This document shows positions 8,463 to 64,000 of a stretch of DNA of 64,000 nucleotides, piece by piece. The translations under genes were made by a program, and so were the position numbers. Source of the DNA: Candidatus Heimdallarchaeum aukensis (GTDB lineage Archaea; Asgardarchaeota; Heimdallarchaeia; Heimdallarchaeales; Heimdallarchaeaceae); NCBI GenBank assembly GCA_021513695.1, contig CP084166.1:96001-160000 (forward strand), given 5' to 3'. Below the pieces are notes generated by a model. It had not been told where the DNA came from and did not search any database. It worked only from the letters and a program-made list of their open reading frames with translations. The first letter of the stretch is position 1; every line of letters starts with the position of its first letter.

Positions 8463-8467
8463 TGTAA

Positions 8468-12272: not shown

Positions 12273-12277
12273 TGTAA

Positions 12278-21900: not shown

Positions 21901-22255
21901 AACAACAGAAGATAAATACTACATTGATAATGGTGAGACTTATTTAACCTTTAGAACTCAAGATTTCGAAAGCGACGCTTGGAAACGCAAGAAAGGAAAA
22001 ACAAGATGGGTTGCTTATAAAAATAGAGATGCTCCCTATTATTTAGGTGTTGTAATCAACTCTAAGAAATTTGGATATACTGTAGAACCTTACATACCTA
22101 ATTTAAACATTTCAAAAATAATTGTGCAATCTCCTATAGCGAAAATAAAACCTAAAGAAACGCTTACTTTTGAAACAATGATAATATTTACTGATGAACT
22201 TGAAAAAATCAAACCATTTACCAATAATAATATTAGAGAATTAATTGAAGAATAA
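18941..22255 (+). CDS. GNAT-family N-acetyltransferase domain (roughly residues 20-170) fused to a roughly 940-aa beta-rich domain of unknown function
   Basis: VALLGVDPAFQGKKIGKSLL is the GNAT motif A (Q/RxxGxG/A). HTWGGNLKAMPLYKRQGYK is the GNAT C-terminal motif. No signal peptide is present. Total length is 1104 aa. Confidence 0.6.
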   Translation: MKKMNKIKKNVIFPEPVSTIKIRPLQKTEKDYKEIARCFNSFNDSDSWPDGFGGSFVFTEEWAENEYSLKDLSSHFVALTKDEDQKIVGVCYCNRSSHLKDAWYVALLGVDPAFQGKKIGKSLLLNATRFALEKQARLISLHTWGGNLKAMPLYKRQGYKWRPDTVVYMENYIPQILNFPLFTPIFKQISWYDSFKPHITQEQDKEFIEKMKIYEYKFQNEKDDFELTTWIDRTIGYISGFHLKHEKEDISIKAYTPKSEAFIGVEKFPVFLEISNNTDKEKTLNIFLISSSSIKIDESKTDEQIKIKPNTKIKLSFKGSFLPSTPEFDDKRFKQSLVEHYVSFKIQYNETEFHLYVGKIPKSPVKVEISPYYLNVLPSSKTSIPFSISNFTGEKQNWTLKIKNGNYVSFLSNTIETEVSIYDNLVEVDAEVENTSTTVDYIQAKIYSNEINKEIGSFDLPILIVNKDKAIHYKINQFHYIENKYVRVKFDETPLSSNMIYIDDKKRKLKIMGNSIVLGLPFDNEGSEFYTKKLNHEIKELEDGILFISTCLSENKKGIKVVRKLFIPHDASPLKISYELENTTDNKIENMGVHYGYWWWSGHQPQKYKIIPLKEGIYYSNLFELSLELGKDPSKLKEGWVACKYDNGFAGFLFNLEKTDKVYLDSTLPHVDYILPFIEPKTKIELPAVYFYFADDWKSVREKWSELYLGKYLVDEEDEQPSPMRIYGISLGKEASIVDGLFIEKNNSKFYFNFDAFLPTEFKGKILFKEGKIYPNEIKLEGKKIARFSQDLKIDVLDTLETLKEKLILDTGSYIDEKDIALCFYSNEKPIKKEINEEKNKYIQVSNGLVTFRASHNFNGVAYFLSYKDQKNIFKTFWPESPPFLWDNRFFGGIAPHIVQYNSWDFQDYLDLKFELLPDVRKGKLEGVGMKSEIITYSPYLKGLQVTNYYLTLPASPFLLVQQQIYNHSGVSRYFNPVISINLEPSGTTEDKYYIDNGETYLTFRTQDFESDAWKRKKGKTRWVAYKNRDAPYYLGVVINSKKFGYTVEPYIPNLNISKIIVQSPIAKIKPKETLTFETMIIFTDELEKIKPFTNNNIRELIEE

Positions 22256-38200: not shown

Positions 38201-39579
38201 TCACTTGGGTTTTTGAAGATTCATTTACTTCTCTCCTTGCTGTTTTTGTCAGCTTAATGGGAATAGGAGCTATGATTTCTATTTTCGGTATCGGATTAAT
38301 AATCAGAGAATTACATAATCTTCTCCTCATAATAGTCAGTAAATTGTCTTGGAAAGTTAAGAAATCTATAGGTTCCTTTTCATTAATTGAAGTTCGTTCT
38401 GATGCTAAGTTATTTACAAATACCTTTTTCTCATTTCTACTAATAATAGCTTTTGTAGTCCCTTCAATTATTGTTCCTTTGGCAATACAGGACCATTTCG
38501 TAAATATATCTTATTTCTCTTCTGGATCAGATGTTTATATTTCTAGCTGGTCTCTGTATAATGCTTCTAAGTCAAATATTACTTCTTACGATGAAGTAGT
38601 AAGTGTTGCTAATATTAGTGTTATAGAAACTACATATGGAGAACTCAACTTCCGTTTTCTAGTAATAGATAATTTAACAGAGTTCCGTTCTACAATATAC
38701 GATGTTCCAAAATACATAATGCCTGATTTTGATGAACTTCTATCCAAATTAGAACAAAATGATACTATGCTAGTAAGTAAGTTGTTTAACAAAGTTTTTC
38801 TTTCTCCTGAAACTTTTACCTTCACATCAGCTAATGAATCACTCAATAAAGAAATTCGAGTTGGAGGAGAGTTTACATACTTCCCTATCTTTTTCTTTGG
38901 CGATCGGTGGTTAAACGATAATTTTGAAATTTATTATTACGATTACATATGGTTTACTTTTCATATTGTCTTGACAAATCAAACTTTTACAGAAATCAAA
39001 GAAACTTTGAAAACACCTACTGTAGTTGTTGATAGACTCTTAATCAAACTTAAACCTAATTCTAATCCCATTAAATTTACTGAAAAAATTAAAAGAGATC
39101 TAAATATTGATTCAAGAAGTACGAAAGAACTAGCTGACTCAACTCTGTTTCAAGCCTATCCTTTCTATAGTGTTTTAACTTCGATGTTTGTTTATACAAT
39201 ACTAATGAGTATATTTGCAGTTGCTTTTATCAGTCTGAGTAATCCTTTGAAACTCTTGATACAGAAATCATCAAAGAATGACATTTTAAGAAAACTGGGT
39301 GTAAGGGTGAATAGAATTATTAACATATCTGCTTTTGAAATCTTTGTTTCAAGTTTTATACCTGGGATGATTCTTGGAGGACTTAGTGCCTACGGATTGT
39401 ATGTATTTTTCAAATACATTTTTATTGACTTTGGTTGGCGCGGTCTACCATACAAGAGTTACATGTTCTTCCCTGTTACTGGCGTTGTTATAGGCATATT
39501 TGGAGCATTATATTATGTCATCTTCTACTTCTCTATGAAGATGAATTTCTATAAATATAGACCTAGAAATTTGGAGTGA
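35260..39579 (+). CDS. Giant ABC transporter permease, paralog 2, with the same architecture as 4164..8462
   Basis: The likely start is ATG 35299. The signal peptide is IFLSFIIIMFITLTINSVKA. The extracellular domain is sequon-rich. There is a TM (WWTLLIGFGFIGGMYGIF) and two FtsX-type modules. It ends RPRNLE* within TTGGAGTGAT. Confidence 0.8.
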   Translation: MHIFINVCLKFTFMSIKSKKIFLSFIIIMFITLTINSVKAEEQAAPILYTKYSSYTNIVESVFDENNQMHIFLGRSDEFNYKILHIFNGEAILIDAGVNNIERFFKAKIFPGGVALFYLDHDITKGDTLYYYYYFINNGSHGLKVITKSGLASNYKINIFQDNSRFTIITSYSISYYTSAIKSFNCSFSGEILDSESYDVEVSIYKIKGFVFQNEKIFFYFYKDVYNASAYLSFLYVQGINENGHIFNSSVIEYPNSYSETIITQGIKKDFYIQTIQDGQIFYYSFNENETFSFSDYNSADFYIYYYNEYSIEYTGNWINTTFIEYEYMYYSDFSYSSTINILAIVTSYNSEQMLFAKFEKTITFQESFFQYSVDIALDGPYYYMFIATKSTEKIHFNETEVLGLYVLTDDPNFVPPKEPIYYEIKHISNFTYFMKNYWWTLLIGFGFIGGMYGIFHKRINKSIRKMKKFLLRPVVDNVSTAKLILINIWLFFFNTYSLVLSLWRVNKKRLIINILGLSILAFVLINTSVLYNSEQATVLQKYFDNHDFGSNYDTSVDFTKTFIEQSKTAENISLINENYTLLAAEDIMKSLKQKAPTLASLIVDYQLTSLITITGSNVTYGNEDIQYYSINSSYNFVLQSLLVNGTLPNKKGEVIVSSSVAEYYDFQVGEVIQFQAVSYKGAFLNYDVVNLTVSGIFSSIGYNTLRQLCADNDLPFDPVRYLTSNMFSAIAFNKYFLKNLENISLGQLTLYGDLEFIYDFSSLDLESFEKLVEEYEYLTENPTQYFKFDPNGTWSLSYELRYVIIYFQYDLIIMRFLIYLLTIPIVFLALFLLSEVNSIFASSFKQEIEILQSQGLSVGRITFIYSSMKFGESVVGTVFGLLGTFIFTPILLKVDKFLQFTNPIYHFTLKGSLSTIFITFFALIIASLPRIIRLAKQSEKKQKEPRRFVTLIKRLRIHYFLVVIFGGIIAFGGYYLAAIFTWVFEDSFTSLLAVFVSLMGIGAMISIFGIGLIIRELHNLLLIIVSKLSWKVKKSIGSFSLIEVRSDAKLFTNTFFSFLLIIAFVVPSIIVPLAIQDHFVNISYFSSGSDVYISSWSLYNASKSNITSYDEVVSVANISVIETTYGELNFRFLVIDNLTEFRSTIYDVPKYIMPDFDELLSKLEQNDTMLVSKLFNKVFLSPETFTFTSANESLNKEIRVGGEFTYFPIFFFGDRWLNDNFEIYYYDYIWFTFHIVLTNQTFTEIKETLKTPTVVVDRLLIKLKPNSNPIKFTEKIKRDLNIDSRSTKELADSTLFQAYPFYSVLTSMFVYTILMSIFAVAFISLSNPLKLLIQKSSKNDILRKLGVRVNRIINISAFEIFVSSFIPGMILGGLSAYGLYVFFKYIFIDFGWRGLPYKSYMFFPVTGVVIGIFGALYYVIFYFSMKMNFYKYRPRNLE
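35261..35275 (+). promoter_or_regulatory. Putative TATA box (gcatatatttatt) about 27 nt upstream of the ATG at 35299
   Basis: Its position suggests the real start is MSIKSKKIFLSF... at 35299, a signal peptide, rather than 35260. Confidence 0.3.
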
Positions 39580-41333
39580 TAAAAGTGATACAAGCTGATG
39601 ATTTATTAAAAGTATATTATGACCCTATTACTGAATACAAAGTTGCTGCTTTAAGAGGGTTATCTCTTGATATTAAAGAAGGTCAGTTAGTTAGTATAAT
39701 AGGCCCTTCTGGTTCAGGTAAAACAACCTTAATTAACATTTTAGCCGGACTTGATGTTCCTACAGGTGGAAGAGTAATTGTTAAGGGTCAACAATTAGAT
39801 AAAATGACAGAAAGAGAAAGAAGAGAGTTTAGGTATTATAATATTGGTTTAATTAATCAGTTTATAAGCCAGAACTTGTTTCCAAGACTCACTGTAATAG
39901 AAAATCTGATGATACCTAAACGTATGTTTTGTCTTCCTCATGAAACAGCTAAAAAAGAAGTAGAAGAGTTACTCGAACTTTTGAGATTAAAGCATATAGC
40001 AAAGAATAATGTAGAAAAAATATCTGGAGGAGAAGCAATTCGGTTGTCTCTTGGAGTAGCCTTAGCAAAGAATCCTGATATTTTGTTGTGTGACGAACCT
40101 ACAGGTCAATTAGACAATATGCATACTAAAGAAGTAGTTGAAACTATTAAAGATGTAAATATTACCATGGGTAAAACAATACTTGTAGTTACCCACGATA
40201 TTCGCTTTAGGACTGTTTTTGAACGAAGTTTCATCATTCGTGATGGCCGTCTTGCTGGAATTAGTGTGGATATTAATAGGAATCAACTAGAATTTCTTAT
40301 GGAATCTTCTGAAATGAAGAGATCTTATGTAGACCCTTCTAATTTCGCTAGAATTCCAGATGAAATAAAACGCAGTTTAGGCATTAAAGACACTGTTGAA
40401 TATGATCTTCATCCTTCGAAAAAGATTGGTTTAATTTGGAATCCTGATTTGATAACTAGAGAAGATATTTTCCACATATTAAACAACCCAGAAGAAGAGT
40501 ATGAAGAGACAGTAGATCAAATAAGCTATGAAGATGTAGAACCTATTCTCTCTCGAAGTTTTGTACCTCCTGAAAAAGAAGAACCTATTATTAAAATAAG
40601 TAATTTGAAGAAAGGATATCCTTCTCCAGCTGGATATAATCTTGTACTAAAGGGTATTAACTTATCAATTAATAAAGGAGATTTTGTTTTTATTTCTGGT
40701 CCCAGTGGAGTAGGTAAGACTACGCTCTTTAATTGTATTTCAGGATTAGATAAGATTGATGATGGACATGTAGAAATAATGGGTTTTGATATCAAAAACC
40801 AACCAGAACCTCTTATTTCTGATTTTAGATTAAAGCACATATCTTATATCACTCAGCACAATAACCTTTTTGAACCGCTATTAGTTGAAGATAACCTTTT
40901 CTTACCTTATTTGTTTTTAGGAGAGAAGATAGATATAGATTATGCCAAAAAAATAATGAAAGAATGCTTTATTGATCATAAAATTAAGTCTTACCCTGAT
41001 GAACTTTCTGCAGGAGAAAAACAACGTGCAGCACTAGCTACTAGTTTGGCAAGGAAAACATCTATCCTTATTGCTGATGAACCCACTGCTAATCTTAATT
41101 CTGAACTTGCCCGTTCAATAATTAATCTTTTTATGGATATATCTAAGCTAGAGCAAAAAACAGTTATTATCTGTTCTCATGATTTGAGTTTATTACGTCC
41201 AGGATTTAGACATATTCGTCTATCAGATGGTCAGATAGCGGAAGATTATCGTGTAACAAAAGAGCAATTACAAGAGATTATTACAGAATACCTTAGCATT
41301 CAAAAGAACAAAAAAAATGAATCTATTACGTAA
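39576..41333 (+). CDS. Tandem-NBD ABC ATPase, paralog 2
   Basis: NBD1 has GPSGSGKTTL, ISGGEAIR, LCDEPTGQLD and VVTHDIRF. NBD2 has GPSGVGKTTL, LSAGEKQRAALATSL, LIADEPTANLN and CSHDLSL. The conserved linker is IPDEIKRSLGIKDTVEYDLHPSKKIGLIWNPD. The start is GTG 39576, overlapping the permease stop (GTGA), or GTG 39585. Confidence 0.85.
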   Translation: MIKVIQADDLLKVYYDPITEYKVAALRGLSLDIKEGQLVSIIGPSGSGKTTLINILAGLDVPTGGRVIVKGQQLDKMTERERREFRYYNIGLINQFISQNLFPRLTVIENLMIPKRMFCLPHETAKKEVEELLELLRLKHIAKNNVEKISGGEAIRLSLGVALAKNPDILLCDEPTGQLDNMHTKEVVETIKDVNITMGKTILVVTHDIRFRTVFERSFIIRDGRLAGISVDINRNQLEFLMESSEMKRSYVDPSNFARIPDEIKRSLGIKDTVEYDLHPSKKIGLIWNPDLITREDIFHILNNPEEEYEETVDQISYEDVEPILSRSFVPPEKEEPIIKISNLKKGYPSPAGYNLVLKGINLSINKGDFVFISGPSGVGKTTLFNCISGLDKIDDGHVEIMGFDIKNQPEPLISDFRLKHISYITQHNNLFEPLLVEDNLFLPYLFLGEKIDIDYAKKIMKECFIDHKIKSYPDELSAGEKQRAALATSLARKTSILIADEPTANLNSELARSIINLFMDISKLEQKTVIICSHDLSLLRPGFRHIRLSDGQIAEDYRVTKEQLQEIITEYLSIQKNKKNESIT

Positions 41334-49112: not shown

Positions 49113-51200
49113 TTAAACACTCATTGTGAGGGTTTCATTAAATTGAGGGACAACTAGATCTTTGTGTTTAATAGTAATATTCTCTGGAGTATGAACCATT
49201 ATTTTCTTCCCATTAAGTTCTGAAATAAACTTATCCAAATTTCTAGGAGTAGTGTGTCCACTTATTTGTAGATTGTAAATTTGCTGAGAGTATTGATTTA
49301 AAGCTACAGGATGATTTGTTTTTAATGAGTAGCCTAAAGTTTCAGGGGCTTGATAACCACAGATTATTACTCCAACATCATCATTATCTCTTGTTTCATC
49401 TAAGAGCAATCTAGAGGTTCCTCCTTGAAGCATTCCATTTCCTGCAATTACAATATCTCCATCTTCAAATTCGTCAGCGTTCATACTTTTTAGTAATGTA
49501 TGATCTCCTGAAATACCCATTAATTTTGTTATTTCACTAGCTAACCCAACAATTTTTACATTGTGTTCTTTTGTTAAACGTAGTTTTTCTAAAAGTGTAT
49601 ACATTTCCTGTGCTCTTCCAACAGAAAAAGCTGGGATAATTACCTTTTTATTCTGTTTAACGGCATTTAAAACAGTTGTTTCATTATCAACCTTTTTTAG
49701 ATTTCTATTATAGTATGTTCCATCAAAAATGGTTACATCGGCATCGGTAGGAAATTCAGCTCCTTTGAAAAGATAACTTTTTTCTACTTTAAAATCTCCA
49801 GTAAACAAAATTCTCTTTCCGAATATTTCAATTAAATATCCATAACTTCCAAATACATGAGAAGAAGGAATAGGAGTAATTAAGAACTCAGGAGAAATCT
49901 CTATAGATTTTTTAGGTTTAAGTGGATTAAATCTATTAAAGAAATGAATTAATGTTGATTCACTTTTTATTGCTTTTAGGTATGGTGATAATAACTTTTC
50001 ATCAGGTATTCCTTTTAACATTGTTGAAGTGTTGAAAAGTAACTTTTCTCCTATTACTTTTGTATTTACACTTCCATACCATCTTTTTTCTTCATCAATA
50101 TTTACTAAATAAGGTAGAGCTCCAATATGATCTAAATGAGCATGGGTCACAAGTATTGCTTTCACAGTTCTCAAAGAAGGATGCCATCGAGGAATAGAAT
50201 AGTTGCTAACACTCATCCCATAATCTAGTAAAATGGCATCGTTATTATGTTGAATAAGTATAGCCATATTTCCAATTCCTCCACCACCTAAAAATGTAAT
50301 TCGTACTTTTTGGGCTAGTTTATGGCAAGAATAAGCTTTTTTCGAAGCAAATTCTTTAATTAACTTTGGAGGAGTATTTGCTAATTCTTCTAATTTTACT
50401 ATTCTAGGTTCTACTTTTTCTCTTATTTTCTCAAAGAATGGTTTGTATGTAATGGGGACAATTGGGTATTTACTTTTATTTAAAAGATTTTCAATCTTTT
50501 TTTGAACTTCTGGAATTGATGTTTTTTTATCCAGAGAAAGTTCTGAAATAATAAATTCACTATATCTTAAATCTAGTTCAGATAGTAGCTTATAATCTAT
50601 AAAAAAATCTAGAAATTCTAGCACTTCTGTAGGAAAATTTGGAATAAATTCTTCTAAATAGTTAGATTTTTCTTGTAATAGCTTAACCATTTTTTCTAAT
50701 TTTTCTGCTAATTCCTGAGTTTTTTGGTTGATGGTAAATGGTACGTTTAGTTTTTCTAAAATAGCGATGAATTCTGAAAAAGATCTAGGTTTTATACCCA
50801 TATCTCTACAAAAGTTTAGATACTGAAAGTAATCAATCTCTCTTTTTTTTACTTTCTTGGTTGAATAAATTAGAAAGAACAATATTATATTTTCATGTTT
50901 CAGACTATCTGTAAGCTGTAAATGTTGAAAAACCTCCTTTACAAGTTTAATATCGATTAAATCCTTTGCATACAAAGTAAATAAAACAGCAAGAAATTGT
51001 TCTCTTTGTTCTATGTCAATAGGTGTATTCCATGAAAGATTGAAGATATCTCCTATTGTTTTTGGGATTTCTTCAATTTCTCCTTTTTCTAGTATTCTAC
51101 TAAAATGTTTAACTTGCGTAATTAACTCTTCTTCTATTTGGGGTTCCTTTTCACCATTTAACAAAAATTCAATAATATTTTTTCCTGCTTGAATACTCAT
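49113..51200 (-). CDS. Metallo-beta-lactamase-fold / beta-CASP-like hydrolase (putative nuclease) with a roughly 290-aa N-terminal domain of unknown function
   Basis: The motifs are GGGGIGNMAIL, ILVTHAHLDHIGALPYL (HxHxDH) and a C-terminal ISGHTTPRNL (beta-CASP motif C-like). Confidence 0.55.
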   Translation of the reverse strand: MSIQAGKNIIEFLLNGEKEPQIEEELITQVKHFSRILEKGEIEEIPKTIGDIFNLSWNTPIDIEQREQFLAVLFTLYAKDLIDIKLVKEVFQHLQLTDSLKHENIILFFLIYSTKKVKKREIDYFQYLNFCRDMGIKPRSFSEFIAILEKLNVPFTINQKTQELAEKLEKMVKLLQEKSNYLEEFIPNFPTEVLEFLDFFIDYKLLSELDLRYSEFIISELSLDKKTSIPEVQKKIENLLNKSKYPIVPITYKPFFEKIREKVEPRIVKLEELANTPPKLIKEFASKKAYSCHKLAQKVRITFLGGGGIGNMAILIQHNNDAILLDYGMSVSNYSIPRWHPSLRTVKAILVTHAHLDHIGALPYLVNIDEEKRWYGSVNTKVIGEKLLFNTSTMLKGIPDEKLLSPYLKAIKSESTLIHFFNRFNPLKPKKSIEISPEFLITPIPSSHVFGSYGYLIEIFGKRILFTGDFKVEKSYLFKGAEFPTDADVTIFDGTYYNRNLKKVDNETTVLNAVKQNKKVIIPAFSVGRAQEMYTLLEKLRLTKEHNVKIVGLASEITKLMGISGDHTLLKSMNADEFEDGDIVIAGNGMLQGGTSRLLLDETRDNDDVGVIICGYQAPETLGYSLKTNHPVALNQYSQQIYNLQISGHTTPRNLDKFISELNGKKIMVHTPENITIKHKDLVVPQFNETLTMSV

Positions 51201-51291
51201 TTTTCTATCACATAAGTTGGAAATTAATTAAAGTCAAAGATAATATAGACACATAGCTAATAATAAAAGGAAATGAAGAGTAAGAAAATAA

Positions 51292-52254
51292 TCATTTTTC
51301 TTCTTCATCATCATTTAACAAGCTACTGAAGGCTGCTCTTAATTCATTTTGAAGTGATTCTTTCATTTGCTTTGTAGATTTTTTAGGAGTAGCTGGTGTA
51401 GGCTCTGATACTGGGCTTACTTCATCTGATTCTTCCATTCGTTGAGATCTTCTTTGTTGAGCAGCTTTAACTTCTGAAAGTAAAGCTTGTTGTGGAGAAA
51501 GAGGTCTTGATGCTTGTGCAGCTTGTTCTCTCTCTTTTTTATGAGCATCAGGATCAACTTTCTTTAATTTTGCTTTTGCTTCCAGAATTGCTGAAGCTGT
51601 TGGTCCACCTAATGGTCCCACACCTCCCCCACCCATAGGTCCTGGGCCAGGAGCTGGTGATTGTTGCACTGGAGCTTTTTGTAATTTTGCTTTTGCTTCC
51701 AGAATTGCTGAAGCTGTTGGTCCACCTAATGGTCCCACACCTCCCCCACCCATAGGTCCTGGGCTAGGTGCTGGTGATTGTTGCACTGGAGCTTTTTGTA
51801 AAGATTTGGCAGCATTAGCTATCTCGCTAGCAAATCCTGGAGAACCTGGCCCTGCTCCTAGATTAGGAGCTGGTGCAGGAGCTCCACTTAAATTTGGTGT
51901 TGGAGCTGGTCCCCCTAGATTAGGCGCAGAAGTCGCTCCACCCCCTATATTTGGCGCTGGAGCTGGTCCAGAACTCAATTTAGGTGCAGAAGGTATCGAG
52001 GGACTTGGAGTACTTCCACCTATACTTGGAGCACTAGGCATTCCCATTCCTCCTCCAGGTGCTCCACCTAATTTATTCTCCAAAGCTGTTATTCGCGCAT
52101 CTAATTCGTTAATAGCATCTTCAATTCTTTCTGTAGATTTGATCATAATACTTCCAAAGTTTTCAAGAAGTCTAGTTAATTTTGCAATCGCAGTTTTCGT
52201 AGGGGAAGAACCTTCAGATAATAAATTGTCTAGGTACTCATCAATTGACATCAA
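51292..52254 (-). CDS. Low-complexity Pro/Gly/Ala-rich protein with an N-terminal coiled coil, two 39-aa repeats each ending in a WH2-like AILEAKAKL(Q/K)K(A/V) motif, and an acidic C-terminal tail (LLNDDEEEK)
   Basis: The translation contains LQKAPVQQSPAPSPGPMGGGGVGPLGGPTASAILEAKAK twice. Its N-terminus is IDEYLDNLL...ITALENKLGG. Confidence 0.5.
   Translation of the reverse strand: MMSIDEYLDNLLSEGSSPTKTAIAKLTRLLENFGSIMIKSTERIEDAINELDARITALENKLGGAPGGGMGMPSAPSIGGSTPSPSIPSAPKLSSGPAPAPNIGGGATSAPNLGGPAPTPNLSGAPAPAPNLGAGPGSPGFASEIANAAKSLQKAPVQQSPAPSPGPMGGGGVGPLGGPTASAILEAKAKLQKAPVQQSPAPGPGPMGGGGVGPLGGPTASAILEAKAKLKKVDPDAHKKEREQAAQASRPLSPQQALLSEVKAAQQRRSQRMEESDEVSPVSEPTPATPKKSTKQMKESLQNELRAAFSSLLNDDEEEK
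51566..51799 (-). repeat. Coding tandem repeat of 2 x 117 bp (about 97% identical)
   Basis: Copy 1 is 51566-51682 and copy 2 is 51683-51799. They differ at gccaggagc vs gctaggtgc. Confidence 0.85.
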
Positions 52255-52335
52255 ATATCAAAATATACTAGACTGAAAACTATAAAAAGACTTTGTTAAT
52301 GCATAATGAAAAAGAAAAATTAATTGTTCTTGAAA

Positions 52336-53425: not shown

Positions 53426-54961
53426 CTAAAGGAATTTAGGTGGTTCAGGGATATTATCTAAATATTTAAGGAAAGGTTCTGGCCATTCGTCAGTTTTTAA
53501 GCCTTTTTGAGAAACAAAGGCAGTAATAAATCGTTCAAAACTTCCTCCTCCACAGCCTGACCAAAGATCTTTTCCTCCTTCAGTTTTTACACTAAATCCT
53601 CTTGGATATTTGTCTCCTATAATAGAAATATTCTGGATTTCTAACCACTCACTTTCTTCTCTAGAACCTCTATAAGGCATATAAGTTTCGAAGTCAATTG
53701 TACCAACAAGCATGTCTTCTTCCTCTTCATCTTTTGCAGATTGTTCAAGCCACCAAGGCATAACTTTTGCTTCTCGGACTTCTAAATCAAAAATTCTGTC
53801 AAAAACTTCTCTTAATTTCTTTCTTGTTTCAGTTGCTACCTCTTTTACTTGTTTTGGAGTGCCAATAAACAATGTTTCAATTCTATGTAATTCATCTACT
53901 CTTTCAAAACCATAAGCAGAGCCAGATTCATATCTATATGTTGGTCCACTCCAATCATAAACTAGTATAGGTAAGCTCTCTTTAGCAATTGTTTTTCCTT
54001 GAAGCCAAGCCCAGAAAGGAGGACATTGAGCATAAGACAATCCTCCTATTGGAGGAGTGATTTTTTCATATAGTTTGTCTTCAGGAATTGTTTTTGTTAT
54101 TGTTATATAATCAGCTATTTCTTCAAAAAATTCAGGGTTTGCACTTTTAGGTTGAACAACAAAGTACGGTTCAAACCCTCCTTGAAACATTCCTTCTGCA
54201 TGACCAGAGCGTAGCCAAATTGACCAGTCCACAAGCTTTGGTATCATCATTTTCTGATAGTTTAGAGGAGTATATACATGTTCAACCATTATCTTCTTTA
54301 TTGCTTCAATAACTGCTGTAATGGAAGGAGTTAAAATCCATTGATTTCTATAATTTGTTCTTTTAATCCATCCTTCTTTTTCAAGAAGTTTTGTTGGATT
54401 TTTGGAAGTAAGAAGTTTCTTTTCACCTGAATACCAAGCAACTGTATGGTGTTCTTTTTTAGCTCCATGATAATCTTTAGATATTTTATCATTGATTCTT
54501 CTTAATATCCGTTCTATTGCTCCTTTTTCAACAAAATCTTCTTCTATTTCAGGGTCTATCTCAATTCTTGCCCAAGGTTCATCCTCTTTTTTGAAAAACT
54601 CAAGCTTTGATGTTAAAGGTAAAGTAAATTCTCTTTTAGGTTCAAGTTTAAGTTTTTTCTCTATCTCATATTTGATAAATTTAAAACCTCTTAGACCAAT
54701 TTTGTATTTTTTGCCAATTTCTTGTGCTAATTGTTTGCGCATGCGTAAAACTATAGTGTGAGGAGCATATGAGTCAACTGAATTAAGAGAAAGTACAATC
54801 TTCTTATCCTTTATTTCAGAAAGTTCAATAGTGAATTTTCCTTTTGGACGTTTAGAATTTAAATCTTGTTCATATTTTGAAATAAACTGTGTTAAATGTT
54901 CTATACTCTCTTTAGGTAATTCTCCGCTTGTGATAAAATATAGTTCTAAAGTTTGTTTCAT
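53426..54961 (-). CDS. serS: Class II aminoacyl-tRNA synthetase, most like methanogen-type (zinc-dependent) seryl-tRNA synthetase
   Basis: Motif 2 is YRYESGSAYGFERVDELHRIE (SerRS-like R.E.GS.G..RV......E). Motif 3 is GCGGGSFERF. The candidate Zn ligands are C313, E345 and C470, in the Cys/Glu/Cys arrangement known for methanogen-type SerRS. Confidence 0.5.
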   Translation of the reverse strand: MKQTLELYFITSGELPKESIEHLTQFISKYEQDLNSKRPKGKFTIELSEIKDKKIVLSLNSVDSYAPHTIVLRMRKQLAQEIGKKYKIGLRGFKFIKYEIEKKLKLEPKREFTLPLTSKLEFFKKEDEPWARIEIDPEIEEDFVEKGAIERILRRINDKISKDYHGAKKEHHTVAWYSGEKKLLTSKNPTKLLEKEGWIKRTNYRNQWILTPSITAVIEAIKKIMVEHVYTPLNYQKMMIPKLVDWSIWLRSGHAEGMFQGGFEPYFVVQPKSANPEFFEEIADYITITKTIPEDKLYEKITPPIGGLSYAQCPPFWAWLQGKTIAKESLPILVYDWSGPTYRYESGSAYGFERVDELHRIETLFIGTPKQVKEVATETRKKLREVFDRIFDLEVREAKVMPWWLEQSAKDEEEEDMLVGTIDFETYMPYRGSREESEWLEIQNISIIGDKYPRGFSVKTEGGKDLWSGCGGGSFERFITAFVSQKGLKTDEWPEPFLKYLDNIPEPPKFL

Positions 54962-55031: not shown

Positions 55032-56774
55032 TTATTTGTCATTGATTTTTACTTGTAAGAAATACTCAATTATTTCTTTCAAATCTTTCTTTGTTATACG
55101 TTTATCTGACTGAATTCCACCTTTTTCTAAGACTATGTGTCTCATTCCTGGTCTTAACAAACTAAGATCATGCGAGCAAATAATTACTGTTGTTTGTAAT
55201 TTTTCTGCAACATCCATTAATACATCAATTATGGCTCTTGCCAAATCACTATCTAAATTAGCTGTTGGTTCATCTCCTATTAGAATAGGCGTTTTTCTTG
55301 TTAATGCAAGTGATAAGGAAGCTCGTTGTTTTTCTCCAGCAGAAAGTTCATCAGGATAAGCTTCTAACTTATGTTTTATTTGACATTCCTCAACCATATT
55401 TAGAGAGTACTCTTCATCATAGTCTAATTTAGAAAACAGATAAGGGACAAGAAGATTATCTTTAACTGTAACAGGTTCAAAGAGGTTATTATGCTGAGTG
55501 ATATAAGCAATGTTCTTTAATCTAAACATTGATGTTTCATATTCATCTTTATCATGAAGTGAAACATTATTGATAATTATTTCTCCTTTATCTGCTTTTA
55601 CAAGTCCTGTAATGCAATTAAAAAGGGTAGTTTTTCCTACTCCACTGGGCCCAGTAATCATTACGAAATCTCCTTTTTTAACTTCTAAGTTAATGTTTTT
55701 TATTACTTGATTATAACCTGCTGGAGAATGATATCCTTTGGAAACTCCTTTTAATTGCAAAATATTTTCTCTACTCTCTATGAAGTTGAATTTTCTGCTA
55801 ATAATTTTTTCAATTTCTTCATAAGAAATTTCTCGAGATTCTTTAATCGCTTCGTCAACTGGTTTATTCAAAATCTTGTATATTTCTTCTCTATTTACTA
55901 TATCAGGATTCCAAAATAAACCAAGAGATCCAGCAGGATGAGCGTCAAATTCTACTACATCATAAAGCTTTGTTTTCATCTTTATTTGATCAGGTATTCT
56001 AAGAAGGCTATTTTTATCTAAGTAAGCCCGATTATTTGTAGAAGAACTTGTCATAAATTCAAGTTTATCTTTTTCCATATCTTGACTTACTCCTACTAAT
56101 CTCCCATCTCTAATGATAAAGCTATGTTTGAATACATTTCTAAAGCGGATATCGTGAGTCACAACAACAATAGTTTTACCCGTGTTCTCGTTAATATCTT
56201 TTATAGTATTAATTACTTCTTTAGTATGCTCAGTATCTAATTGACCTGTAGGCTCGTCAAGAAGTAGAAATTTAGGATTTTTAGCTAAGGCTGCACCTAA
56301 AGATAAACGCATAGCCTCTCCACCAGAAATGCGAGAAACGAGATTATTTCGCACATGATATAAGTTTAACAGTTCTAAAATTTCCTTGACTTCTCTTCTG
56401 GCTTGCTCTCTTGGAATGTAAAATAATTTTTTGTGTATCATAAGATTCTTTTCAACAGAGAGATTTGAGAATAAGTTATCGCTAATATTTTGATTGATCA
56501 ACCCAATGTATCTGAATCTGAACTCTCTTAGTTGTTTTTGAGACATTTTTTCTAAATGATGGTTGTCAATAATGACTGATCCTCCAGTAATATCTTCTAA
56601 GCCAGATAAAATCTTGATTAATGTGGTTTTTCCTGCTCCAGAAGGACCAACTATACTTACAAGATCACCTTTTTCTACATATAAATCTAATCCTCTTAAA
56701 GCAGCAACTTTATAATCAGAATGAGGGTCGAAATAAATTTTAAATAAATCAATACATTGTATCATTTTTATCAC
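55032..56774 (-). CDS. Tandem-NBD ABC ATPase, paralog 3
   Basis: NBD1 has GPSGAGKTTL, ISGGEAMR, LLDEPTGQLD and VVTHDIRF. NBD2 has GPSGVGKTTL, LSAGEKQRASLSLAL, LIGDEPTANLD and CSHDLSL. The start is GTG 56774 (GTGA overlap) or ATG 56765. Confidence 0.85.
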   Translation of the reverse strand: MIKMIQCIDLFKIYFDPHSDYKVAALRGLDLYVEKGDLVSIVGPSGAGKTTLIKILSGLEDITGGSVIIDNHHLEKMSQKQLREFRFRYIGLINQNISDNLFSNLSVEKNLMIHKKLFYIPREQARREVKEILELLNLYHVRNNLVSRISGGEAMRLSLGAALAKNPKFLLLDEPTGQLDTEHTKEVINTIKDINENTGKTIVVVTHDIRFRNVFKHSFIIRDGRLVGVSQDMEKDKLEFMTSSSTNNRAYLDKNSLLRIPDQIKMKTKLYDVVEFDAHPAGSLGLFWNPDIVNREEIYKILNKPVDEAIKESREISYEEIEKIISRKFNFIESRENILQLKGVSKGYHSPAGYNQVIKNINLEVKKGDFVMITGPSGVGKTTLFNCITGLVKADKGEIIINNVSLHDKDEYETSMFRLKNIAYITQHNNLFEPVTVKDNLLVPYLFSKLDYDEEYSLNMVEECQIKHKLEAYPDELSAGEKQRASLSLALTRKTPILIGDEPTANLDSDLARAIIDVLMDVAEKLQTTVIICSHDLSLLRPGMRHIVLEKGGIQSDKRITKKDLKEIIEYFLQVKINDK

Positions 56775-59700
56775 TCCAAATTCATAGGTTGATATCTAGC
56801 AAATTGCATTTTCATTGTCATGTAGAATATAGAGAAAAACATAACAGGAATAACTAGAAAAATTATCACCGCAATAACTGGTGGAAACTGAATAGGATTA
56901 GGCAATATCTCTTGCCTTAGGCTTCTTAACACTCTTCGTATAATTTCAGTTATTGTAAAACCTACTGCTGTACCACTGATTATTCCAGGAAGAATTCCAA
57001 TCATGAATAATTCAAAGGAACTCATTTGAATTATAAGTTTGTTAGGTATACCCATCTTCTTAAGAATGTCATGCTTACCCATTCTTCTTTGCAATATCTT
57101 AAGAGGATTACTCATACTTGTAAATACAATAGAGATTATGCAAATTAATAATGAAAAAACAAATATTGAAACTATCGAAGCATAAAAGGGAAGATTGGTA
57201 CGGTAAATTTCTTGTTCTTCTTCAACTATGTTAATGATTTCTAGATTGTATTTCTCTTCTAAACTTGAAGAAAATTGAACTATATCCGTTTTTTCTTCAA
57301 CATTTATTAATAATCTATAACCAAATACTCCAAAAACGGTTAAACTCTCTTCTATTTTCTCATAATTGCTCTCTGTTAGAACAATCATAGGAGTTCCTCC
57401 CGATTCTCGTGGACCATAAGGATAGATTATGGGGAAATAGTCAAACTCATCTATTATCTTCACTTCTACGTCATCGAATGAGTATTTCATTTCGCTAATA
57501 TCAAAGAAAAACTTGAAGTTGCTAGAAACAATTATCTCTTTATCGTTATCCAGTTGAGGAATAATATCATCCCAATTTTTGTAAAATCTTTCTGAAGGTT
57601 TATACGCTGTATTATAGAAATCCGAAGCTTTTTGAATCACTAAAAGATTTAACTGTCTTCCTCCAAACATTGCGTCAACTTGAGAAACGTTACATATGCC
57701 GATTACTTCGGGAAGAATTTTAATTTCATCACTGATACTGGAATTAACGTTATTGTAATTGCTTATATACATATCAGCTCCTGCCATAAAGTAAGAATCT
57801 TTTATTATCCCATTCTGCATTGTTAGAGGAGCAGCTATTGCAGGAACAGCAATTCCTACCAAAAGTAAATAGGTCAAGAAAATATCATTAAACAATGAAA
57901 GATCTGTTTTTACTTCAACTAATGAGAAAGTGAATATATTCTTCTTAATTTTCCACAAAGTTTTGCTTAAAACTGCCATAATAAAAGAGTGAAGATCTTT
58001 TAAAATTAGTCCTAAACCGAATAAAGATATCATTACTCCAATTCCAATAATATACACGAAAATGTTTATCAATTGGTTATCTGAAGAAGAAAGATTTTCG
58101 CTGAAAGTTAGATATAGTTTTAGTCCTCCGTAAATTATTCCTCCTCCAACAGCAATAATAATGAAGTTGCCGATTTTCACCTTTTTAAGAAAAGAAACAA
58201 ATTTGTTATAATCTCTTATTTGCTCCTTCTTTATTTTTGCCATTCTTATTGTTAAAGGTAAAGTAATAATTATTAAACCAAAGAACGAAATTGTGAAAAT
58301 TAAAGGAAGATTCTTTAACGAAGGCATTGTAGAACTTAGATTGAAAGAGACAAATCTATCTAATTTTAATAAAATGGGAATAATCAGTATTGCTTCTCCT
58401 AAACCTAAAAAGGTTGCAATAAGTGATTCTACAAATTTCATTACTGTGTTCAGATAAACTATTTTTCCAGTTGACAACCCTTTGGAACGGAGAATTTTAA
58501 TTTCTTCATCAAAACTTGTAGCAAATAAGGCATTTGTTTCAAAAATCAAGAATAGTGCAAGGTAAAGGACAGGTATTGATAATAAAACAATTAGAAATTG
58601 AGTAGAGGAATAGGAAGGAACTAAACTTTGCAATACTAGTTTTAATTCAGTTGAAATAACCCAAGAACCACCTAAATCAAATTTTACAGGATGATCGTAA
58701 CTTGGTTGTAAAATGTCAAAATCATTTATTAGTTTTCCAATATTTTTAGAATTAACTAAAGAAAAATCATAGAAAAATTGAACTATACCATCAAATTTCA
58801 GATGTTGAACTGGCATAGTTTTTAAACTTGACAGATAAAAATCATTGAAAGTTATTGCACCGATGTATTGTGAAATCATTTCTATGAGATCATATGATAA
58901 TCCATAATCTCTACTCATCTTAAATAATGAAGGTTCTGTTGGTTTTTCGTAAATCCCTACAATAGTCATGTTCACTCTTTCTTTTAAACCTCCAACAGAG
59001 ACATCTGCACCAACAAAGACAATAGTGTCGTTTATTGTTTTATTGAAAGCTGTCGCTGTAGTTTGATCGATTATAACTTCATTGATTTTATCAGGTAACC
59101 TACCTGAAACTAGAATTCTTCCCAAAATATCCTTATAATTAGTAGATAAGGAATAATATGATTCTACGCTCTGAACTGTACTCTCAGTATCCTTCTTAAA
59201 TAGAATTCGCATTTGCATTGAATAATCAGAATCAATAATTATATCCTTCAAAACTTCAGTTTTAAAAGCGATAGTTGAAAGAATCTCGTTCATAACAGCA
59301 GAAGAAAAATTCTCGTAAAAAGGTGAGTATTCATTTACTCTCCCCCATCTCGCGGAAAGAACATTATGCATTCTCGAAAACGTAGCTGAAGCTTTTTCAT
59401 CTTCTTCTAAATGAGCATCTTCTAAATATTGTTGTATCATCATGTTTTGTTTATATGAAAAGAGTGAAGAAGAAGAGAAAACAATCATTGCCAAAATTGA
59501 TAAGCCTAGTATTGTTATTATAGCTCTCTTTTTGTTTGATCTCCATAAATCGAAAGGAAGACTCAATGAACTTACAATAAAAACCCATAGATTGAGAAAT
59601 ACTAAAACAAATTTACTTTTTCCAGTTTTTATAGGTCTAAATAAAAACCTAAATAGTTTTTTTCCTTGATTTACTATTTTTTTGTAAAATATGGCTATAA

Positions 59701-61195
59701 ATAGTAAGAGAATTGAGATAGCTATTGTAAATTCAATCCAATGTATTCTAAAAACATATTGAAAGAAGTTTACTAAAGTTAGATCGTAAATAACAGGTCT
59801 TATAATACTGTTGAAAGATAAATTACTATTTGAATAAATTAAAACAGAAAAGACATTAGGTTCTACTATAACTTTGTTTTCTAGTTGAGTATCATGAAAT
59901 CTCTGTGTTCTACTAACTAAAAAAGTAGTAGGAGATTGAAAATTGATATGAGTCGAGTCGAAAACCGTAATGTTTGAAGTGAAAGGAATATCAATAAATT
60001 GTTGAGTAATATTTTTTCCATTATATCTTAAAATAGTAAATTCAGTAATTAAATCAGCCTTAGAATTACTTGAATTAAGAGGTAAGTGGGGATTAGGGTT
60101 GATTAAGAATGTTATTGACGAATCAAAAGAGTAGTGATACAAGTCATCATATGAATACATTCCCAATTGAAATTCACTAAAGTTTTCAAAAGAAAGACTT
60201 TCGTTCAATTTAAAATTATGAGTATAGAATGTTGATCCTTTAATTAGAGCCAAGTTTAGTGTAGTTTGATTAAATACCGATAAATAAACATCATAATCAG
60301 TATTGAAAAGAAGATAGTTACTTAAATAAGGGTCATCGTTTATGATATATATTCCAACTAGCCTTGTTGGGAAAAACATATACTTGTACAATGCAACTAA
60401 TTTTCCATCAACAAGTAGCAATGTTTGAATGCCATTATATTCTAAATCTGTAAACCAATTTTCAGTGCTTGAAGTTCCATTTAGAAAAACTGTTAATTTT
60501 TTAAATTTAGTCTTTGGGTGCTCATCCATTGCCGATTCAAACATTGGTTCTGCAAACAGCAAATAGAAAGAGTTTTCTATAAACTGAACATTATAGATAA
60601 AATAATTTCCAAAAAAACTTGAATGGTAAATCAAGAAATTACTTTTGTTTTGTTCTGATTCCCAAACATACATTTCAATATTGAATTGCCCAAAGTTTCC
60701 ATGATATGAATAGAACAATACTATTTTGTTATCAATTCTAAAGGTGTCAAAAATTGTTCCTGGACTTAAATCTGTTTTAATCTTTGATATATTTCCTTCA
60801 AACAAATGAAAGATAGTGAAGGATTGATTTTCTAATTCCATTTTTATGAATAAGTGTAATCTTTCTTGAGTGTCTAACACCGCTCTTGTTTCTAAATCTA
60901 CTATTGTTTCATAAGCTTGAAAATAACCTATAACCTCTTCTTTAACTTCTGGATTTTCAGTTATATCAGCACTTATTAGCAAAGAATTATAATTTAAACT
61001 TAATATAGACGCTATTAAAATAAACACGAAATATTTTTTTTCCATACCAATCTCCCATCGGATATGCCTTTTTTTGAACACTTTAAAATTTTCCTCTGTA
61101 AAAATATTTTTTAAATGAATAAATACTTCAAGAAAAGAATTTATATATTGCAAGTTCTTGTTAAGCAAAATGTCCTCAAAAACCTCTAAAGACAC
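56771..61195 (-). CDS. Giant ABC transporter permease, paralog 3. The likely true start is ATG at 61045 (MEKKYFVFILIASILSLNYNSL, a signal peptide).
   Basis: It has the same architecture as paralogs 1 and 2. It ends YQPMNLE*. The upstream extension to 61195 overlaps the divergent MFS gene, so it is probably not translated. Confidence 0.8.
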   Translation of the reverse strand: MSLEVFEDILLNKNLQYINSFLEVFIHLKNIFTEENFKVFKKRHIRWEIGMEKKYFVFILIASILSLNYNSLLISADITENPEVKEEVIGYFQAYETIVDLETRAVLDTQERLHLFIKMELENQSFTIFHLFEGNISKIKTDLSPGTIFDTFRIDNKIVLFYSYHGNFGQFNIEMYVWESEQNKSNFLIYHSSFFGNYFIYNVQFIENSFYLLFAEPMFESAMDEHPKTKFKKLTVFLNGTSSTENWFTDLEYNGIQTLLLVDGKLVALYKYMFFPTRLVGIYIINDDPYLSNYLLFNTDYDVYLSVFNQTTLNLALIKGSTFYTHNFKLNESLSFENFSEFQLGMYSYDDLYHYSFDSSITFLINPNPHLPLNSSNSKADLITEFTILRYNGKNITQQFIDIPFTSNITVFDSTHINFQSPTTFLVSRTQRFHDTQLENKVIVEPNVFSVLIYSNSNLSFNSIIRPVIYDLTLVNFFQYVFRIHWIEFTIAISILLLFIAIFYKKIVNQGKKLFRFLFRPIKTGKSKFVLVFLNLWVFIVSSLSLPFDLWRSNKKRAIITILGLSILAMIVFSSSSLFSYKQNMMIQQYLEDAHLEEDEKASATFSRMHNVLSARWGRVNEYSPFYENFSSAVMNEILSTIAFKTEVLKDIIIDSDYSMQMRILFKKDTESTVQSVESYYSLSTNYKDILGRILVSGRLPDKINEVIIDQTTATAFNKTINDTIVFVGADVSVGGLKERVNMTIVGIYEKPTEPSLFKMSRDYGLSYDLIEMISQYIGAITFNDFYLSSLKTMPVQHLKFDGIVQFFYDFSLVNSKNIGKLINDFDILQPSYDHPVKFDLGGSWVISTELKLVLQSLVPSYSSTQFLIVLLSIPVLYLALFLIFETNALFATSFDEEIKILRSKGLSTGKIVYLNTVMKFVESLIATFLGLGEAILIIPILLKLDRFVSFNLSSTMPSLKNLPLIFTISFFGLIIITLPLTIRMAKIKKEQIRDYNKFVSFLKKVKIGNFIIIAVGGGIIYGGLKLYLTFSENLSSSDNQLINIFVYIIGIGVMISLFGLGLILKDLHSFIMAVLSKTLWKIKKNIFTFSLVEVKTDLSLFNDIFLTYLLLVGIAVPAIAAPLTMQNGIIKDSYFMAGADMYISNYNNVNSSISDEIKILPEVIGICNVSQVDAMFGGRQLNLLVIQKASDFYNTAYKPSERFYKNWDDIIPQLDNDKEIIVSSNFKFFFDISEMKYSFDDVEVKIIDEFDYFPIIYPYGPRESGGTPMIVLTESNYEKIEESLTVFGVFGYRLLINVEEKTDIVQFSSSLEEKYNLEIINIVEEEQEIYRTNLPFYASIVSIFVFSLLICIISIVFTSMSNPLKILQRRMGKHDILKKMGIPNKLIIQMSSFELFMIGILPGIISGTAVGFTITEIIRRVLRSLRQEILPNPIQFPPVIAVIIFLVIPVMFFSIFYMTMKMQFARYQPMNLE

Positions 61196-63379: not shown

Positions 63380-64000
63380 TTATAGTTTTTTTATATATTC
63401 GATTATAGAATTAAAATTATTATTAGTTAGAGAAGAGTATACAATCAGATTTTTCTGTAAGAACGAAATTTCTTCCAGCTTTTTGCTTATTCTTTCAAAG
63501 TTTTTAGTTGTATTTTTAATATCACTTTTTGTTAAAATAAATGACATTCTAAGTTTATTCTCATCTTCAATTTTCTTCAGAATTGCAAAAATTCTTTCAT
63601 ACAAAGATTCTTTGTAGATAAAGCCATAGTCAAGAACAAAAAAGATCGCATCAAAGTTATTTTCGACTTTTTCATTTAGATAATATGAAATCAAATCCAT
63701 ATTTCCGCCAATTTCTGTAATTTTTAATTTTTTTCCAAGGAAATAAAATTGAGATGTGGAAATTCCGATATTATGAAGTTTAGTTCCCAAAAAAGCATTG
63801 TAATTTAATCTGTGAATAATACTCGATTTTCCACATTTACTAAAACCAATTAGTAGAATGTTGAGTTGTTTATTTTCCTTTCTTGAGATTGAATATTGTA
63901 CTTTGAATTGATTTTTTTGTCCAAAAGTAATTTTGGTAGAATATTGACCTAGAATTGAGCCTGTTGATTCAATTATTTTTCCAAAACCATCAAAAATGCT
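63380..64000 (-). CDS. Protein with a C-terminal small GTPase (Arf/Sar/Rag-like) domain. The ORF is open through the window end, so it is 5'-partial.
   Basis: The P-loop is LLIGFSKCGKSSI. Switch II is ITEIGGN (WDxGGQ-like). The NKxD equivalent is LTKSD. SSL is the SAK equivalent. The 210 bp upstream of the TTG at 63790 translate without a stop (SIFDGFGKIIESTGS...). Confidence 0.6.
   Translation of the reverse strand, partial: SIFDGFGKIIESTGSILGQYSTKITFGQKNQFKVQYSISRKENKQLNILLIGFSKCGKSSIIHRLNYNAFLGTKLHNIGISTSQFYFLGKKLKITEIGGNMDLISYYLNEKVENNFDAIFFVLDYGFIYKESLYERIFAILKKIEDENKLRMSFILTKSDIKNTTKNFERISKKLEEISFLQKNLIVYSSLTNNNFNSIIEYIKKL

Follow-up and report, generated by a model that had tools for sequence, protein, structure and literature searches.

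A largely disordered coiled-coil protein family of Heimdallarchaeia with tandem helix-LxKV motifs, a candidate multivalent scaffold

In this study, we have examined a gene of Candidatus Heimdallarchaeum aukensis that lies on the minus strand of a 64,000-nucleotide stretch of contig CP084166.1 (positions 96,001 to 160,000; this whole stretch is referred to as the window, and its coordinates count from its first base). The product of this open reading frame (ORF 51292-52254) had been proposed, from the sequence alone, to be a VCA-like actin regulator. The best reading of the protein is that it is a cytoplasmic, largely disordered, multivalent scaffold that is specific to Heimdallarchaeia. The earlier proposal is partly supported: what survives of it is an analogy in architecture, which may serve as a testable lead but does not extend to a family assignment, because the analysis found no WH2 match, no polyproline, no Trp and no cytoskeletal gene context, and the window protein also lacks the Phe that closes the acidic run of most of its relatives.

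An initial search returned four relatives of the protein and a profile search returned 57, all of them unannotated "hypothetical proteins" from metagenome-assembled genomes of Heimdallarchaeota or Heimdallarchaeaceae. The gene is present at 19 loci of species-representative genomes, among which are that of Ca. Heimdallarchaeum endolithica PR6, which is complete (L001; approximately 85% protein identity and fully syntenic), and that of Heimdallarchaeota AB_125. The genome itself belongs to the Heimdallarchaeaceae and is thus Asgard, the condition that the sequence-only reading had set for relevance to a eukaryote-like actin toolkit. When 1.84 billion representative proteins were searched exhaustively by HMMER with a 39-sequence profile, only 15 matches were obtained at E<=1e-3, and neither eukaryotic relatives nor members with an extra domain were found in that search at that threshold. 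The distant matches comprised proteins of 430 to 480 amino acids (aa) from Kariarchaeaceae, a 339-aa protein of one further lineage and one fragment. The N- and C-terminal blocks and the motif islands of the family are kept at approximately 40% overall identity and into other Heimdallarchaeia families, and NCBIfam holds no match for the window protein. We conclude that the family, which numbers at least 60 proteins, is specific to Heimdallarchaeia, is undescribed and has no demonstrable membership in any named family.

The possibility that this is a non-specific low-complexity, surface or spacer protein whose motifs lack function, which had been named beforehand as the generic alternative, was not upheld. 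The abundance of Gly, Pro, Ala and Ser would suit such a protein, as would the lineage-to-lineage variation in the number of repeats; however, the persistence of invariant terminal blocks and motif islands at this degree of divergence, the lack of a signal peptide or membrane segment on inspection by eye and the presence of the gene's own promoter-like element make it barely credible.

The structure of the protein was modeled with AlphaFold2 (mean predicted local distance difference test [pLDDT], 60; predicted template modeling score [pTM], 0.23). The model contains one long helix, at residues 18 to 62, and short helices that fall exactly on the conserved motifs, with pLDDT values below 50 in the remainder. 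The N-terminal module is the best-conserved part of the family; its two helices (residues 4 to 13 and 18 to 62) are predicted at a pLDDT of approximately 80, and the longer one has a perfect, unbroken 3-4 hydrophobic spacing, as expected from the coiled coil that had been claimed for this end of the protein. The polar core of the coiled coil, K-S-T-E-R-x-E-D, is invariant, and we infer that this helix is an oligomerizing coiled coil with a specific interface. Between residues 63 and 218, Gly makes up 23%, Pro 21% and Ala 15% of the sequence, so the Pro/Ala/Gly-rich stretches described earlier are real, with the qualification that two prolines are never consecutive. P-N-[LIVM]-[SGT] repeats occur one to five times per protein in 54 family members and are also found in the distant relatives. 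A role for the PNLS repeats as N-glycosylation sequons was considered and rejected, since many of the copies are PNLG and the protein has no signal peptide.

The C-terminal part carries the short motifs. Motif 2 has the family consensus ATDIQDVRSGLTKVDPDEHRKER, with FSPFGVSATDIQDVRSGLTKVDPDEHRKER as the form of the majority clade. Among the 54 full-length members scanned, 47 carry G-L-[TK]-K-V-[DN]-[PQ], a number that rises to 50 if Ile is counted for Val. Motif 1, whose family consensus is GISSADLMKAAANLQKAPE, has a predicted helix at residues 141 to 153 and retains LQKAP in 43 of 54 members. Across the family, the L(0), K(+2) and V/A/I(+3) positions of LxKV are invariant or nearly so, and the residue before the Leu is Gly, Ser or Asn, as in helix-cap-LKKV modules. 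The 39-aa repeats of the window protein end in AILEAKAKLQKA and AILEAKAKLKKV, as had been reported, and the segment represented by AILEAKAKLKKV proved to be conserved in the homologues, with the family consensus D-I-Q-D-V-R-S-G-L-T-K-V-D-P. Downstream of motif 2 is a basic helix (residues 254 to 275 in the model; family consensus, MALNxEVKDALAKRKSR), followed directly by an acidic run that ends in F-x-P in 44 of 54 relatives; the window protein has Val or Ser in place of the Phe and no aromatic residue there. The protein closes with an invariant helix (residues 294 to 315 in the model; pLDDT up to 89; consensus, STKQMKEALQxELRxAFSSLL), for which the superfamily-wide signature is M-K-x-x-L-Q-x-x-L-[RK]-x-A-F, and with the acidic NDDEEEK terminus noted previously. 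This last helix was also considered as an ESCRT-III MIM1 motif, an assignment that was rejected, as there is no Snf7 core and the spacing is unfit. As a separate observation, motif 1 in its majority form, SSADLMKAAANL, is similar to Lifeact (GVADLIKKFESI), a probe for F-actin; the match is short and may be due to chance.

The distant relatives share the layout of the family in the form of three tandem motifs of the pattern hydrophobic-x-x-hydrophobic-[Q/K]-x-A-L-x-x-L-K-[K/S]-V. Because a third LK[KS]V copy, such as ITQDSIQSALKGLKSVKTKGKE, takes the place of the basic helix in these proteins, the family appears to derive from a design of three tandem helix-LK[KS]V units. In the lineage of the window protein and PR6, a 117-nucleotide (nt) tandem duplication, which is common only to these two and is single copy in the other relatives, has added a further helix-LxK[AV] unit. 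The two 39-aa repeats that had been described correspond to this duplication, and the earlier description needs a further correction, in that a third related motif, FASEIANAAKSLQKAPV, precedes them. Two database variants, P0002 and P0068, are truncated or frameshifted exactly at the 117-nt repeat (...AILEAKAQFWKQKQN and ...AKAKLKIIKKRENKLHK...), and P0001 is without the duplication; these variants suggest either assembly collapse or real strain-level instability.

Several results weigh against membership of these motifs in the WH2 family. The search with the Pfam WH2 profile (PF02205), which had been set beforehand as the refutation test, returned nothing at E<=10, whether the query was the window protein, any of 39 family members or any of nine isolated C-terminal motif peptides. 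A home-built WH2 hidden Markov model (HMM), made from 17 canonical sequences compiled by hand, scored the family at no more than 4.3 bits, compared with 5.7 bits for shuffled sequences. In hhalign comparisons with the alignment of the same WH2 sequences, motif 1 did not rise above permuted controls; motif 2, a weak point in favor of the WH2 reading, scored 13.9, against 7.4 ± 2.2 for column-permuted controls, of which 1 in 60 reached 13.9. A WH2 motif consists of an amphipathic helix with an LLxxI triad, a linker of 4 to 7 residues and L-[KR]-x-[VTA]. The family does not conform to this ELM-style pattern: it has just two hydrophobic positions before LxKV and a linker of 0 to 3 residues, and its helix-to-LxKV spacing is 2 to 3 residues below that of canonical WH2. 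Furthermore, the +1 position of motif 2 is Thr (LTKV rather than LKKV) in 40 of the 51 pattern-matched members among 54 scanned, and that of motif 1 is Gln.

Aligned by hhalign with five WASP-family CA segments, the basic helix and acidic patch scored 19.1, with a probability of 36%; column-permuted controls scored 6.6 ± 1.3, and none of 60 reached 19.1. An alignment with VCA sequences was collinear across V, C and A over 60 columns, with a score of 20; its probability of only 12% would speak against the VCA proposal, and the CA signal may stem merely from a basic run followed by an acidic run, a pattern common in disordered proteins. The reference sequences for both WH2 and CA were compiled by hand, which is a weakness of these hhalign and HMM comparisons. 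Because of these hand-compiled references, and because the basic-then-acidic pattern is common in disordered proteins, the hhalign signals weakly suggest a relationship and may be regarded as a lead rather than a passed test. Pfam also gave a Myo1_CA match in one member (E=1).

Taken with these comparisons, other features speak against a WASP-like protein: the longest Pro run is one residue in the window protein and one to two residues across 54 relatives, and Trp is found neither in the acidic region nor anywhere else, its place in that region being taken by Phe in the 44 relatives mentioned above. Searches of the PDB by sequence and by profile retrieved no WH2-actin, VCA, WAVE or BRK1 entry but generic coiled coils alone (haemagglutinin HA2, a tropomyosin-like fragment and VP35). 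A Foldseek search of the AlphaFold2 model against the PDB gave meaningless matches (E>2), as expected at its pTM. No gene for an Arp2/3-complex subunit is present within the 64-kb window, and no complete Arp2/3 complex is known to have been described in Asgard archaea. The WASP-like order of proline-rich, WH2 and acidic segments put forward in the sequence-only reading thus has neither polyproline nor a WH2 match behind it, and there is no Trp; the family does have a basic helix followed by an acidic run, collinear with V-C-A, which that reading had not noted. A genuine VCA-type nucleation-promoting factor that activates Arp2/3-like assembly in Heimdallarchaeia would account for the collinear V-like, C-like (ALAKRKSR) and acidic segments, the aromatic residue that closes the acidic run in most members, the score of the CA region relative to its controls and the Myo1_CA match. 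It would, however, have to do without the Trp that defines the Arp2/3 contact, without polyproline and, in the window protein, without even the Phe; its hhalign probabilities are 12 to 36%, and the putative C helix is, in the distant relatives, simply a third LK[KS]V repeat. We therefore regard this explanation as highly improbable.

The best Pfam match of the window protein is to CCDC53 (PF10152), a WASH-complex subunit, at residues 23 to 68, with an E value of 5e-4 and a score of 20.9 bits, compared with a threshold of 24.6 bits. The close relative P0001 reaches 26.9 bits and so exceeds the gathering threshold, and 8 of 39 members match at E<=10. The protein might accordingly be conceived as a very remote true homologue of CCDC53/WASHC3 and BRK1/HSPC300, in which case it would be the small coiled-coil component from which a regulatory complex of the WASH or WAVE type is nucleated, the more so as it shares with them an architecture of coiled coil, disordered region and C-terminal helix with an acidic tail. 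However, the matching members are confined to one sub-lineage, with no Pfam match to CCDC53 in the majority-clade consensus or in any of the distant relatives, and the alignment covers only positions 5 to 50 of the 147 in the model, leaving its conserved C-terminal region unmatched. The matched positions are mostly heptad hydrophobics, which are typical of spurious coiled-coil matches. By hhalign, the N-terminal domain gave a probability of 2% against human CCDC53 and of 9.7%, over 12 columns, against human BRK1, the sequence of which was verified against 3p8c_E. The BRK1 chains 3p8c_E and 3pp5_A were not retrieved from the PDB by the family profile at E<=10; CCDC53 has no PDB entry, so its absence among the PDB matches is uninformative. 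No eukaryotic relative was present among the 1.84 billion proteins. The match would most simply be a heptad-driven coiled-coil coincidence, and true homology is improbable.

What, then, might the multivalent scaffold bind? We postulate that the coiled coil oligomerizes the protein, so that each particle would display many short helical motifs, and that two to four tandem amphipathic helices, each ending in L-x-K-[VA], would thereby be presented to a globular partner. Monomeric Asgard actin is a candidate ligand and would be the single most likely partner because of the form of the motif (helix, cap, LxKV and charged residues), its tandem arrangement and an actin contact seen in Asgard gelsolins: an L-[KR]-[KRH]-[VT] motif in the linker of these two-domain proteins contacts actin in crystal structures (PMC9433394). 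In such a role, the protein would gather and deliver actin monomers, like a tandem-WH2 or Ena/VASP-type factor. That the motifs of the oligomeric scaffold bind monomeric Asgard actin in this tandem-WH2 or Ena/VASP-type manner is a tentative proposal, to which we attach clearly less than an even chance. It is doubtful that archaea have in this family their missing factor for actin assembly, an oligomer with tandem proto-WH2 motifs and a proto-C/A segment that would collect Asgard actin monomers through its coiled-coil assembly and nucleate or elongate filaments; we would be equally hesitant to regard such a factor as the forerunner of the WH2/VCA and Ena/VASP design of eukaryotes, or as having converged on it independently. 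Activation of Arp2/3 is a much less likely role than monomer gathering. No Asgard actin nucleator, elongation factor or nucleation-promoting factor was found in the literature up to late 2025, in which the only regulators listed are profilins and gelsolins; nor did the library searched contain literature in which CCDC53, BRK1, nucleation-promoting factors or, beyond the gelsolin linker, WH2 domains are linked to Asgard archaea.

Alternatively, the same oligomeric scaffold may use its motifs to bind a partner other than actin, such as a small GTPase/roadblock module, another eukaryote-like machine of Asgard archaea or nucleic-acid-processing factors, in which case the likeness to LxKV would be coincidental; we give this explanation not quite an even chance. 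It fits with the lack of support from the WH2 profile, and disordered proteins often contain short amphipathic helices with basic residues behind them. The remaining evidence for it comes from gene context. At one locus (L004), genes for an Arf-like GTPase, a roadblock-GTPase and a roadblock-like protein lie directly upstream of the gene, the corresponding pair in the window being approximately 10 kb away, and an Arf gene is located 3 kb from a Kariarchaeaceae relative; within Heimdallarchaeaceae, a beta-CASP gene always adjoins. However, the GTPase adjacency occurs at only 1 of the 19 loci and is an isolated observation, the beta-CASP adjacency is lost in other lineages and the beta-CASP gene does not share its promoter- and terminator-like signals with the ORF, and none of the tests positively indicated any alternative partner.

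Every Heimdallarchaeaceae locus has the order ABC permease, ABC ATPase, seryl-tRNA synthetase, threonine aldolase, the ORF and a 695-aa beta-CASP/metallo-beta-lactamase (MBL) nuclease, whereas the relatives from Kariarchaeaceae and the further lineage are in unrelated contexts, and no neighbor is conserved family-wide. Gene context was therefore rejected as a functional link, given that this order is absent outside Heimdallarchaeaceae and that the transcription signals are separate. The neighborhood is one of housekeeping genes and varies by lineage, and nothing in it ties the gene to actin, which is a further point against an actin-related function; the window otherwise contains housekeeping and transport genes.

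ORF 51292-52254 is a real gene and more than a chance ORF: invariant blocks recur in its homologues, of which there are at least 57, and it has a TATA-like box and a T-rich stretch of its own (Table 1). Since the codon right after the listed TTG is an ATG (52251-52249) and the homologues begin MSID..., the true start is probably this ATG. The box TTTTTATA suggests that the ORF has its own promoter, and the T-rich stretch is likely to be an archaeal terminator, which would part the ORF from the downstream beta-CASP gene. Flanked by this upstream box and by the T-rich stretch that follows its stop codon, and with another AT-rich box ahead of the beta-CASP gene, the ORF looks like its own transcription unit, the function of these signals being read from their sequence. 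A 156-aa ORF on the opposite strand (51806-52276) is, in our view, most likely an antisense artifact of the G+C-rich repeat region.

Table 1. Features of ORF 51292-52254 and its flanks, in window coordinates
Feature	Position	Strand	Residues	Sequence	Remarks
TATA-like box	52281..52288	minus		TTTTTATA	30-37 nt 5' of ATG; read from sequence
ORF including stop codon	51292..52254	minus			320 aa from TTG; 319 aa from ATG at 52251
N-terminal module	52066..52248	minus	3-63		Short helix SIDEYLDNLL and 45-residue heptad coiled coil
Disordered Gly/Pro/Ala/Ser linker	51835..52065	minus	64-140		Four P-N-[LI]-[GS] repeats, without polyproline
Motif 1	51784..51834	minus	141-157	FASEIANAAKSLQKAPV	Helix and L-Q-K-A-P; precedes the two repeats
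117-nt tandem duplication	51558..51801	minus			2.1 copies, 96% identity; adds an extra helix-LxK[AV] motif
Duplicated motif copy	51667..51717	minus	180-196	TASAILEAKAKLQKAPV	
Motif 2	51523..51600	minus	219-244	TASAILEAKAKLKKVDPDAHKKEREQ	WH2-like candidate
Basic amphipathic helix	51436..51498	minus	253-273	SPQQALLSEVKAAQQRRSQRM	"C-like"
Acidic patch	51400..51435	minus	274-285	EESDEVSPVSEP	
C-terminal amphipathic helix and acidic tail	51295..51384	minus	291-313 (helix)	KKSTKQMKESLQNELRAAFSSLL	Tail, NDDEEEK
T-rich stretch	51262..51291	minus			Directly 3' of stop codon; read from sequence

A number of observations concern the neighboring genes in their own right. The beta-CASP/MBL gene (49113-51200, minus strand) encodes 695 aa, of which residues 300 to 695 form the catalytic half and the N-terminal region of approximately 300 aa has no family match; the protein is distantly like aCPSF1 and Cas14-type MBL-CASP proteins, far under the equivalog cutoffs. 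The seryl-tRNA synthetase (53426-54961, minus strand), approximately 65% identical across the Heimdallarchaeaceae loci, carries a tRNA_bind_4 N-terminal domain (PF18490), which we take to mark a rare methanogen-type form of the enzyme. In the Kariarchaeaceae loci L021 (4292-5764), L022 (6237-7709) and L023 (5007-6479), the relatives of the ORF always follow a KaiC/RecA-like ATPase gene and a gene for a 490-aa protein with a faint SQHop_cyclase_C match only, a context different from that in Heimdallarchaeaceae.

The GTPase-roadblock context reported in the sequence-only reading is verified only in part: the end of the window contains a partial small GTPase gene (from 63380 to beyond 64000) and a gene for a 281-aa protein with a weak Roadblock/LC7 match (E=0.0034), which together occupy 62534 to beyond 64000 on the minus strand; the three further roadblock domains that had been listed with it have no Pfam match at E<=1. 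The partial GTPase has a roadblock-like N-terminal part and a P-loop, GFSKCGKS, at approximately 63800-63900. In L004 (7265-9937), the orthologous pair stands, together with an Arf-like GTPase gene that has a C-terminal extension, directly upstream of the orthologue of the ORF.

Elsewhere in the window, three paralogous cassettes (4164-14065, 35260-41333 and 55032-61195), a number unusual for 64 kb, each combine a giant permease of 1006 to 1474 aa with an ABC ATPase, which is double in three of the four permease cases. Three of the four giant permeases have sub-threshold matches to MacB-type periplasmic domains only, and the fourth, at 35260-39579, has no Pfam match. These four largest ORFs of the window were considered as CYFIP-, NAP- or strumpellin-like partners and were rejected on account of their MacB-type or absent Pfam matches and because each adjoins an ABC ATPase gene. 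ORFs 8468-9364 and 9252-12272 overlap by 113 nt, and one start is probably misplaced. The gene at 16322-18154 (plus strand) encodes a 610-aa protein whose lone match is to a Mon2/Sec7/BIG1-like HUS domain, below the threshold (E=1.3e-4; 22.2 versus 27.3 bits), and which is possibly an eukaryote-like protein related to Arf guanine nucleotide exchange factors. The 1104-aa product of 18941-22255 (plus strand) has an N-terminal GNAT acetyltransferase domain followed by approximately 900 aa without a family match.

The actin of Asgard archaea is eukaryote-like, and in cultured members both protrusions and crawling depend on it. With no Asgard nucleator known and a layout suited to multivalent gathering of monomers, the family is a cheap and concrete candidate to test. 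If actin binding is true, then WH2/VCA-type regulation either pre-dates eukaryotes or arose twice; if it is not, the closest archaeal lineage to eukaryotes nevertheless has in this family a conserved disordered scaffold that is new, and the search for its partner would be worthwhile.

The motifs of the family are reminiscent of those of the WH2/beta-thymosin group (PF02205), which includes Spire, Cordon-bleu and VopL/VopF. Both have a short amphipathic helix, L-x-K-[VTA] and a charged stretch, here LTKVDPDEHRKER, for which the equivalent in WAVE is LRKVEEQREQE, and the L(0), K(+2) and V(+3) positions of WH2 match the conserved positions of the family. Likewise, the two to four tandem copies, separated by flexible linkers of 25 to 40 residues, are arranged as in tandem-WH2 nucleators. 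Unlike WH2, however, the family gives no profile match, has a helix that is one turn shorter and a linker of 0 to 3 rather than approximately 4 to 7 residues, usually carries Thr or Gln rather than Lys or Arg at the +1 position and is missing the LLxxI triad.

The likeness to the VCA region of WASP-family proteins (WASP, N-WASP, WAVE and Las17) lies in the order of the elements: helix-LxKV, a linker of approximately 20 to 25 residues, a basic helix and an acidic run ending in an aromatic residue. The basic helix of the family, ALAKRKSR, has its counterparts in ALNKRKTK of Las17 and MQKRSKAI of N-WASP, and in both groups a helical assembly domain at the N terminus is combined with a middle region that is long and flexible. 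The family differs in that its aromatic residue is Phe rather than Trp and is absent in the window protein, in that it has no polyproline, GBD, WH1 or SHD and in that an extra invariant C-terminal helix follows the acidic patch; the hhalign probability of 12 to 36% also sets the two apart. In CCDC53/WASHC3 and BRK1, as in the family, an N-terminal coiled coil of approximately 45 to 50 residues leads into a disordered region, and a helix with an acidic tail lies at the C terminus; the match, however, is restricted to the coiled-coil third of the model and to members of one sub-lineage.

The WH2-like LKKT-type motif of Asgard gelsolin, a Heimdall/Loki protein, shows that an actin contact of this kind exists in Asgard archaea (PMC9433394). 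That motif is anchored by a folded gelsolin domain, whereas the family is without any folded actin-binding domain. Among eukaryotic proteins, Ena/VASP, which has a G-actin-binding site, an F-actin-binding site and a tetramerizing coiled coil, offers the closest mechanistic analogy for an Arp2/3-independent factor, since its oligomerizing coiled coil is joined to a flexible region that contains Pro, to a short WH2-like site in which the linker is also short and to a basic helix. The WH2-like site of VASP is AIAGAKLRKV. Ena/VASP differs from the family in that its domain order is reversed, the coiled coil of the family being N-terminal, and in that the family has no EVH1, no profilin-binding polyproline and no detectable homology. 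In its design, the family is a variant of the known scaffolds that join an oligomerization domain, a disordered region and short linear motifs.

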